Positions 26,201 to 29,200 of a stretch of 64,000 nt of DNA are shown in pieces. Positions within the stretch are counted from its first letter, which is position 1, and each line of letters starts with the position of its first letter. Position numbers and translations under genes: made by a program. Source of the DNA: Callorhinchus milii (lineage: Eukaryota); contig NW_024704752.1 of assembly GCF_018977255.1 (NCBI RefSeq), forward strand, positions 12,896,001-12,960,000, read 5' to 3'. The notes under the pieces are model-generated. The model ran no database searches. It was given only the letters and a program-made list of their open reading frames with translations, and was not told where the DNA came from.

Positions 26201-29200
26201 AATCATCTACAGGTGGCCTCCTCCAGCAAGGCAGATAACCAAGGTTCCACTGAAATTCTATGATTGCACATTTCAGTCAGAAAACCTTTCCCTGCTTCAG
26301 CCACGTTTTGCTGAGGTGAAAAGTATCTGCAAATGTCAAACCCAAGACACAACTTGTCGCGTTGCAAGTGGTAAGATATTTCACAGGCATAGCCCCATTA
26401 GTCACTCTGAGCTCACACCTAGTCTTCCATCAACTCTACCCACTTAAACATCAGTAACAATGTTGTGCACTGGCTACTGATATTTTCATGAATGGGCAAC
26501 TTCAAGTGCTTCTATTTTTGAACCTATGACTATGGCTGTGTCGTGCCCCTTAACTGGCGCGTTATGCTCTTGCATTTGTTACTGCACCATGATCTGACAA
26601 CTACAAAAGTGACATCTAGTGGAATTAAACTGGTAATAAAAAACTTCATTTTAATGGCACTTAAAAGGTGGACACCTTCCCAGGATGTATGGGACCTGGA
26701 AACTTTCCAGAAAAAAAAATCAACCCTGTAAACGGCTGATGGGGTTGTTTGCCTCCATTTTTCAAATTGAAATGACTTAAAAGATTGATCTGGCACCACC
26801 ACAACGGAGTTTCTCACAATACTGAAAACTGTGACATCTTCTCGTTATAATGGAAACCCTGAGTGGAATGGGCTAAACTTAGATTGTTTTATTGCTCTCA
26901 GTCAGATCACAAGCACATAGTAACTAAGTTACTTTCTGCAAGACCTGCCACTTTATTTTATTTTGCTGGTGGAAATATTTTTTTAAATTGTTTAAAATTT
27001 AATTTTGTTTTGCAGCTCTTGATTCCAGTGTTCCACTGTATGCAGTTGGATGTTCCCAGTAACCATGGTCTAAGTATTTATTTTTAAATTCCTGTAAATA
27101 TCACCACCGCTGGGATTCCGCTGACCATTTTACTTCAGTGTTGAAATTGGTTTTATTTCTGAAGTTTTAACCTTTATTCAGTTTAAAAAAAGAGGAAATG
27201 CTTTATTTAAAAATGTAAAAATCTTGCTTACAAAGAACTCATAAGAGGAATACTCGTATACATTAGCACTGCAGCAAAGCTCACAGCAGTACAGCATACT
27301 GCCAACATCCACATTTCTCAAGAATGGCAAAGTATAAATACTGCACCATAGTTCTATAGTAGACAACGTGGCATTTTGTGTAAAAGAGGAAACAAATGAA
27401 AATATTGAATATGAAATGTAGAGCATCGCTCCTAGGGTCTCCTTGAAACCATGCACAACTCCACCTAGAATACATTGAAATGACAGTATAAATATACCAA
27501 TCCCTACAGAAAACTGCATAGCATTAATCCACCTGGCCTCTCTAATCGCCTCCTTGTGAGCTTGGAACATCTTCACATTGTTCATGTTGGACTGCCAGTA
27601 CTTTACATATCCACAATGGTCAGCTGTCAGCATCCACATGTCATTGTGAGACCAGGTCATAGCTCTGACCGGACTGTCATGAGCCTGTAGAGAAAAAGAA
27701 CAGTTCCATTTGTGATACACTCTTGTTTGCCCATTGTTATTGAGTGCTCTCTCGTGTGATATCAATTCTGCTCGCTAAAAGATTCCAACTCTTTTTAAAA
27801 TGCCATTCAGATTTTTAAATTCACTACAGCCTTTAAATACACACTAACTTTGAGTTAAGAACAGTATTACGAATTCATGCTAATGTCCCTTTGGCAGACT
27901 GCATAGCTGGGTCTGGATTTAAGCAGCTAATGGTTTAACTTCCCTTGGTGTTAGAAATTCCAGCTCCAATATAAAATATGGTGTAGAAGCATATGGTGAA
28001 AAATAGCATTTTTACACCTCAAGCAGGGGGCGCTGCTTTTCATTACTGCCACAGTACAAGCTCTTCCCACAATCAAAGCGAGCTGCAGGAAACACTCCAT
28101 TCTCCCTCCCTTCCCTAGAAGATCGAATAGTGATAACCGTCATACCTGTAAAATAGTTTCAAAGTTAAATGTGAGCCCATTCCAGAGTGTGAACTCTCCA
28201 CTTGAAGCACCAGTGACTAAACGCCTTCCTTCAGGAGTCCACTAAATACAGAAAGAGACAGTTATTCACCTGTATGAGGAAATGCATTACAATCTTTACA
28301 GCATATTTTGCACTACAATTGTACAATGGACACATATAGGGTGACATAGTTTAATGCACTTCCAGGAACTACAGATCCACAGGACTCGCACTCCAACGAT
28401 GCACCTTTCTAATAGGATCCCCTTGTATAATTGTTCTGAATCTAAAATCTTGATACGATTGACATTACTGAGCAAAACCTTTCCAGCCAGTACTAGTTTA
28501 GTAGCACTTAGACCAGAGCAAAATGTCCCACTCAGAGGTTTCAAGACTTGCATCAGAATGAGATCCTTGTTGGTCATTATGTTAACGACCTCAATATGAT
28601 TATATTAAAACCATGTTTAAATTGTGAGAAAATGAAGGATGTTCTGAGAAGCCCATAATAATTGGTTCACATTTAATACTGTGTGGTCGTGCCCTTTAAT
28701 TCTAAAAATACTAGAAATGATTTATACTAAAAGTTACATTAGAAAAAAAACTACAATATCATTGACAAACACCAAGAGTTCAGAATGTGACATTAACTGT
28801 CACAGCATAAATAATGAAGTGTTTGTAAAATATAACAACCAGAAAGTGATATGAATACTAATGCTATTTAAAACAGTAGTCCCCATTTCATCCAATTAAT
28901 TGGTTGCTCATCTCCTTATTTATGAGAAGTTACCTGTCAAGATTAGGTGTCATGTTTGTATACAACATTTATTTTCCTTTTCACTTTGTGTATTTTGTAA
29001 AGTGCTTTGAGACATTTATTTTTGCATGAAAGCCATGATACAATGTTATTTTTGTTTTCTCCTTTATGGATCTAAACTTCTGAGGTGCAGCAGAAGAACT
29101 TCCTCCAACCCATTTGCAAAGTCCAGGATCAAGCAGTGAGGTGGATTTGTGGCACAGGGAGCGGTTGCAGGGAGTGAGGGCTCTGGCCTACACTGACTTG

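Follow-up and report, generated by a model that had tools for sequence, protein, structure and literature searches.

An AATAAA cluster in intron 6 of the WDR33 gene

The poly(A) signal is read by WDR33, the protein product of the WDR33 gene. In the window (the whole 64-kb stretch of DNA analyzed here), an intron of this very gene harbors a dense cluster of sense-strand AATAAA hexamers, which raises the question whether the reader of the signal controls its own production at this site, as proposed in the first-pass annotation, or whether the cluster has another role. WDR33 is encoded on the minus strand of the window, and its exons were placed by tblastn with WDR33 proteins. Exon 7 starts at 24942, so that intron 6 spans 27532-24943 (2590 nt, minus strand); the intron numbering is that of the human papers provided that the first exon is non-coding. 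The cluster and its setting comprise the following features:

27533..27684, minus strand: WDR33 exon 6 (152 nt), placed by a 98% tblastn match to residues 157-208 of the WDR33 protein P0033 and by its splice flanks
27202..27207, minus strand: hexamer 1, read as Asn-Lys in the read-through frame described below, the stop codon of which is 21 nt downstream, counterpart of human V2 PAS0 by alignment
27173..27178, minus strand: hexamer 2, starting on the final base of the stop codon and conserved in the alignment with the bird-like locus L001
27152..27157, minus strand: hexamer 3, conserved together with its 5' flank in the same alignment
26888..27082, minus strand: hexamers 4-7, unaligned with L001 (identity 34/100, 43/103 and 22/90 past hexamer 3)
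24921..24926, minus strand: exon-7 AATAAA, 16 nt past the acceptor, as in L001 and in human, where the corresponding signal is V2 PAS3

The first-pass annotation reported seven sense AATAAA hexamers within about 320 nt, and all seven are indeed in place: on the minus strand, the 5' bases of hexamers 1-7 are at 27207, 27178, 27157, 27082, 26962, 26957 and 26893 (low ends in plus-strand coordinates, 27202, 27173, 27152, 27077, 26957, 26952 and 26888). Hexamers 5 and 6 have one base in common, which leaves six distinct sites. When the 320 nt were dinucleotide-shuffled, the mean was 0.94 AATAAA, compared with the seven observed, and none of 5000 shuffles reached seven. The same held for the best 320-nt window of the shuffled whole intron (0/5000) and for the 64-kb window after block shuffling, taking the best cluster from whichever strand (0/300). 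Thus, the annotation's concern that base composition alone might account for the enrichment can be put aside. Other permutations of the same letters that lack the AATAAA core occur only twice each, and no antisense AATAAA was found in the first 800 nt of intron 6. The sole comparable cluster in the window consists of five antisense AATAAA at 20385-20465; a TAAAA microsatellite in intron 7 (20383-20469, plus strand) is the source of these five. No tandem repeat was found at the intron 6 cluster, and the region 25100-28300 yielded no Rfam matches.

The sequence behind hexamers 1 and 2 is A-rich, with little in the way of a G/U-rich downstream element, and the richest G/U downstream stretch comes after the overlapping pair 5/6. 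In human, the PAS0 cut falls within the stop codon (PMC11019558). Here, the 21 possible cuts located 10-30 nt past hexamer 1 (27172-27192, minus strand) divide into 11 that, with added A's, keep the stop codon and 10 that would yield a non-stop mRNA.

A read-through frame ending inside the cluster

The first-pass annotation overlooked a long open frame that runs from exon 6 through the donor and ends in the AATAAA cluster:

27178..27532, minus strand: read-through frame of 117 codons plus TGA (27180-27178) encoding a V2-type tail, identified by the open frame, shuffles and homology

Only 4 of 10000 shuffles match this extension of the exon 6 frame into intron 6, and among the 11 donors tested, the intron-6 read-through is the longest (118 codons; next 54). 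The 54-codon runner-up belongs to the intron-11 donor (12174-12012, minus strand). Hexamer 1 lies inside the read-through frame and hexamer 2 overlaps its stop.

The encoded tail is homologous to mammalian-type V2 tails (34-37% identity, E 3e-5 and 5e-7; alignment A1) and is 77% identical to that of P0002, a product of 312 residues in which the tail directly follows exons 2-6. The shared part of P0002 is 100% identical to a skate protein, which makes a cartilaginous fish the probable source of the window. Because a contig no longer than 1232 nt encodes both exons 2-6 and the tail of P0002, a spliced read-through RNA in a relative is implied. A protein search with the tail only recovered P0002 as the sole match among 158 candidates. 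A vertebrate-type V2 tail is present in 48 of the 121 proteins examined (from 120 of 271 matches listed), including the annotated zebrafish isoform 2. The dipeptide Asn-Lys occurs in the last 20 residues of 13 of 48 V2 tails vs 1 of 33 control tails, in a comparison of mostly mammalian proteins at the level of residues rather than codons; as a putative signature of V2 tail ends, it is suggestive only.

No Pfam family matched the tail. With regard to the C-terminal transmembrane domain expected of V2, hydropathy does not discriminate: the 19-residue maximum of 2.08 was equaled in 867 of 2000 shuffles; the hydrophobicity of the tail is what T-rich sequence yields anyway. Given that the hydropathy is no higher than in shuffles and that dN/dS between the window and L001 is about 0.8, the tail protein appears to be weakly constrained.

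The donor and the TGTA elements

27527..27535, minus strand: intron-6 5' splice site, phase 2, non-consensus at +4/+5 by donor comparison
27505..27514, minus strand: 10-nt block soon after the donor, containing TGTA (invariant columns 172-181 of alignment A2)
27229..27293, minus strand: three TGTA, at 27293, 27262 and 27232, the last of which ends 21 nt before hexamer 1

The donor was described as weak in the first-pass annotation, and this is correct insofar as it lacks the +5G found in 11 of the 13 placed WDR33 donors; its crude U1 duplex energy, however, ranks 8th among the 13, that is, mid-range. The +5G is missing also from the intron-6 donors of L001 and of a truncated vertebrate locus, L002, and +5A at the donor is implied by 44 of the 48 vertebrate-type V2 tails among the 121 proteins examined. 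The sequence suggests that coding need partly forces the non-consensus donor: because the intron is in phase 2, GTAA, GTGA or GTAG would put a stop into the V2 frame. A later WDR33 donor, at about 10730 (minus strand), likewise has no +5G.

The three TGTA elements that the annotation placed upstream of the cluster are present, but they are part of a total of five between the donor and hexamer 1, with no enrichment (751 of 5000 shuffles). Those at 27262 and 27232 have counterparts in L001 at similar offsets. The window, L001 and L002 all carry the same 10-nt block about 20-28 nt past the donor; it resembles a mini acceptor and codes for Phe-Ser-Val.

Conservation of the cluster, the acceptor and the frame

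A metagenome scan retrieved five WDR33 loci out of 69 candidate stretches, and the DNA-level comparison is based on one full vertebrate locus (L001), one truncated (L002) and one invertebrate-like (L003). L001 is bird-like (a by-eye comparison of its tail with a bird protein shows about 4 differences in 120 residues) and has an intron 6 of 1.8 kb. The annotation suggested that the cluster be checked for conservation across vertebrates, and the outcome divides the hexamers: hexamers 1-3 align with L001, but hexamers 4-7 do not. In the aligned block of hexamers 1-3 (blastn E 7e-6), 44 of 68 columns are identical, or 24 of 44 once the hexamers are set aside, and past hexamer 3, the identity drops to 24-42% over the next 290 nt. 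Introns 4 and 5 gave no blastn match to L001.

Clusters at the stop are also present in both other loci that reach it, with four hexamers within 150 nt in L001 (2 of 5000 shuffles) and three within 150 nt in L003 (1 of 5000 shuffles). In L003, the read-through is 89 codons long and its stop lies inside the first of the three hexamers, which are at 463-547; the 5' flank of the second L003 hexamer appears to resemble that of the vertebrate hexamer 3. L002 ends before the position of the cluster, and the cluster is absent from L004 and L005, two near-identical loci with a short intron. Each locus with sequence up to the stop, namely the window, L001 and L003, retains the long stop-free frame.

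The 3' end of the intron is even more conspicuous:

24943..24990, minus strand: final 48 nt of the intron, comprising the acceptor region and a TGTA, nearly invariant (47/48 identical to L001)

The match in L001 is at 4866-4913, and the control acceptors of introns 2-5 show 15-23 identities of 48 (ungapped). The TGTA of the acceptor region is 20 nt before the exon-7 hexamer.

In the proximal tail, the identity between the window and L001 by codon position is 43/50/46 of 80, with no codon periodicity; for this one, low-power pair, pS is 0.46 and pN 0.41, vs 0.63 and 0.01, respectively, in exon 6. In the distal tail, mammal-like peptides are readable in two frames that L001 does not use, and near the tail end, P0002 and the window differ in frame. 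That nucleotides persist while the distal frame shifts suggests constraint at the RNA level. The window-L001 pattern, although it comes from one pair and has little power, fits nucleotide-level constraint combined with the need for an open frame. In a literature search that took in few subscription papers, no report on the conservation of the intron-6 hexamers or of the acceptor was found.

Relation to human WDR33 V2 and to other 3'-processing genes

Human V2 keeps intron 6 and ends, by 3'RACE, at PAS0, PAS3 or PAS5 (Liu and Manley 2024, PMC11019558). PAS0, an in-frame signal 12 nt ahead of the stop, is weak (~0.26); PAS3 is in exon 7, 16 nt in, and PAS5 in intron 7; PAS1 and PAS2, the intron-6 hexamers past the stop, were unused in 3'RACE (PMC11019558). 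According to the same paper, V2 amounts to about 50% of V1, its mRNA is ribosome-associated, the protein is a reported ER membrane regulator of STING, homologues exist in fly and sea anemone, and under poly(I:C), V2 goes up about 3-fold and V1 stays constant. Splicing of human intron 6 is slow, and the V2 signals are weak (Liu, Seimiya and Manley 2024, PMC11445923). In HeLa cells, knockdown of CFIm25 cuts V2 by about 30% and leaves V1 unchanged, and V2 is unaffected by knockdown of FIP1 or CstF64 (PMC11445923).

The locus in the window shares with human V2 (PMC11019558, PMC11445923) the gene and the intron, a read-through tail of 117-118 codons with alignable sequence, an in-frame hexamer close to the end of the frame, preceded at about 20 nt by a UGUA, and the exon-7 hexamer 16 nt past the acceptor. 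The differences are that the window has seven hexamers in 320 nt whereas three are listed for human intron 6 (PAS0-2), and that hexamer 1 is 21 nt before the stop as opposed to 12 nt for PAS0. Cleavage, ER location and STING binding are features of human V2, whereas the present locus is known from its sequence. The species table of PMC11019558 includes no cartilaginous fishes or birds. The locus, real and conserved, is most aptly classed as orthologous to the WDR33 V2 poly(A) region already described; the site was known in human, and what is new is the core of three hexamers, conservation that does not depend on the frame, and an acceptor that hardly varies.

Two other 3'-processing genes are relevant to the proposed loop. 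Like WDR33 with its cluster, PCF11 has tandem AATAAA hexamers conserved among vertebrates (PAS1) in an intron of about 3 kb toward the promoter side (intron 1); however, the short PCF11 product was undetected as protein in that work, and PCF11 autoregulation is established by knockdown and PAS deletion (PMC6458999). In intron 3 of CSTF3 (CstF-77), as in WDR33, a non-consensus conserved donor is followed by a conserved intronic poly(A) region, but that intron is 33 kb long and yields no apparent protein (PMC3708835), in contrast to the 2.6-kb WDR33 intron 6 with its conserved open frame. Of the traits common to CSTF3 and PCF11, conserved tandem intronic hexamers are present here, judging by hexamers 1-3 in the one full comparison, with L001; a short isoform with no apparent protein is not, given the open frame in the window, L001 and L003 and the human V2 mRNA on ribosomes. 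The WDR33 site may, nevertheless, work as the CSTF3 and PCF11 sites do.

Published perturbation data bear on this possibility. In human and zebrafish alike, WDR33 belongs to the genes attenuated by PCF11; upon PCF11 knockdown, its log2FC is +0.66, and it is flagged as CPA- and termination-attenuated, with the intron unnamed in the source (PMC6458999). After CPSF1 knockdown, WDR33 RNA rises in all three cell lines (+0.40, +0.55, +0.29), with intronic poly(A) counts down in two of the three (-0.31, -0.47, +0.10), 3'UTR counts up (+0.57, +1.30, +0.36) and CDS-binned poly(A) counts up as well (+0.44, +1.42, +0.39); the bins merge intron 6 with intron 7 (PMC11831233). In these data, most genes rise with less intronic usage, and WDR33 is among 1972-4084 raised genes (PMC11831233). 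WDR33 itself was knocked down in PMC4407891. No WDR33 poly(A) data were found in main-text passages of PMC4407891, PMC4618350 or PMC7471841 or in the supplements of PMC10394034 and PMC7815847. Likewise, the literature search, with its limited coverage of subscription papers, found no published test of autoregulation by WDR33 itself.

Cleavage versus splicing of intron 6 and the competing explanations

Taken together, these observations identify the cluster, with a probability of about 0.8, as the poly(A) region of the WDR33 V2 mRNA, used when cleavage beats the slow removal of intron 6. The anatomy is directly observed; the cutting is inferred from the human orthologue. The slow splicing of intron 6 would give CPSF time to cut, and CPSF, aided by CFIm on an upstream UGUA, would presumably cut behind hexamers 1-3 or the exon-7 hexamer, with hexamers 4-7 as putative lineage-specific back-ups. 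However, because human PAS1 and PAS2 are unused and PAS0 is weak, the conserved hexamers 2 and 3 might not be cut sites. Cutting would produce V2 mRNA and, from it, a truncated WD40 protein with a hydrophobic tail; if intron 6 is spliced instead, full-length V1 would result. This race would also, as a general sensor effect, lower V1 modestly under high overall 3'-processing activity.

A stronger version of the latter idea, close to what the first-pass annotation proposed, is that the region is first of all an RNA-level sensor, a dedicated CPSF homeostat in which more WDR33/CPSF causes more intron 6 cutting and hence less full-length WDR33, with the V2 protein secondary. We regard this as possible but doubtful. 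The nucleotides outlast the frame, as indicated by the mammal-like peptides in the frames unused by L001 and the frame difference between P0002 and the window; the proximal tail lacks codon periodicity and has a pS of 0.46 vs 0.63 in exon 6; the acceptor is nearly identical to that of L001; the conserved hexamers are in tandem, as in PCF11 PAS1 (PMC6458999); and both the PCF11-dependent attenuation of WDR33 (PMC6458999) and the rise of WDR33 RNA upon CPSF1 knockdown, with intronic counts down in two of three lines (PMC11831233), are in the expected direction. Against a dedicated sensor, V2 is unmoved by FIP1 or CstF64 knockdown, knockdown of CFIm25 lowers V2 with V1 unchanged (PMC11445923), and poly(I:C) raises V2, again with V1 constant (PMC11019558). 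Moreover, the CPSF1 response is common to most genes, and the WDR33 CDS-binned counts rise in data that merge introns 6 and 7 (PMC11831233); the long stop-free frame persists in the window, L001 and L003 alike, and human V2 mRNA associates with ribosomes (PMC11019558). The PCF11 and CPSF1 data point toward V1 damping under strong processing, whereas a tight loop is disfavored by the HeLa knockdowns and by the failure of V1 and V2 to change reciprocally.

The annotation's loop thus survives in part: the locus is the orthologue of a known intron-6 polyadenylation region that competes with slow splicing (PMC11445923), and WDR33 goes up when PCF11 is lost (human and zebrafish) or CPSF1 is knocked down, but depletion of FIP1 or CstF64 does not affect V2. 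Its prediction that the full-length form falls as the short one rises is not borne out in human cells, where CFIm25 knockdown lowers V2 by about 30% and V1 is not raised (PMC11445923). The short isoform that it postulated does exist in human, as V2, a protein reported to regulate STING at the ER membrane (PMC11019558), and is no mere by-product.

It is also conceivable, although rather unlikely, that the hexamers bind CPSF and are rarely cut, so that splicing of intron 6 is slowed and V2 is a retained-intron RNA ending in exon 7 or intron 7. A similar slowdown has been proposed for IL7R intron 6 (PMC11331416), human V2 does end also at PAS3 and PAS5 with intron 6 retained and PAS1/2 unused (PMC11019558), and the acceptor region and the exon-7 hexamer are the best-conserved parts of the locus; but human PAS0 is cut (PMC11019558), and the hexamers are located exactly at the stop in three distant lineages. 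Steric blocking of the donor seems unlikely, given that the cluster is 325 nt from it. That the cluster is a functionless A-rich stretch or a decayed repeat is very improbable: the region is 41% A, hexamers 4-7 are unconserved and hexamers 5/6 overlap in an A run, but none of the 5000 composition-matched shuffles reaches seven hexamers, the core-less permutations are rare, no tandem repeat is found here, and for hexamers 1-3, conservation contradicts this explanation. An array of hairpin loops displaying the hexamers is equally hard to credit. Hexamer 3 does lie within a 7-bp stem (1% of 300 flank shuffles), but this is the only notable stem among the seven hexamers, the cluster is no different in this respect from 28 other intronic AATAAA (Mann-Whitney p 0.37), the folding z values of -1.17 and -0.25 are not unusual, and no consensus pairs are common with L001. 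With stems at one of seven hexamers and no pairs shared with L001, the hairpin array is rejected for this vertebrate locus on the one orthologue compared.

Starting from the V2 poly(A) region, we tentatively suggest that intron 6 might be an ancient two-part RNA switch, composed of the three-hexamer block at the V2 stop and the near-invariant acceptor with the exon-7 signal, and maintained at the nucleotide level in jawed vertebrates and in outline in invertebrates. Through this switch, the AAUAAA reader would gauge its own activity and set the level of full-length WDR33, with the V2 membrane protein riding along and needing only an open U-rich (hence hydrophobic) frame. The map of conserved bases (the three hexamers, the post-donor block, the 47/48 acceptor and the exon-7 signal) lets editing separate the role of the V2 protein from the tuning of CPSF supply. 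If the latter role is real, self-limitation of the kind seen in CSTF3 and PCF11 would extend to the core poly(A)-signal reader, and a single choice between splicing and cutting would link the capacity for 3' processing to the control of STING.

Other features of the window

At 63599-63871 (plus strand), an open frame gave only a sub-threshold Pfam match to a DUF; we take its end to resemble a PAK-kinase exon. Upstream of WDR33, on the same strand, are exons of an RNA polymerase II Rpb4 gene, at 41936-42205 (minus strand) and about 43500 (Pfam E 6e-9).
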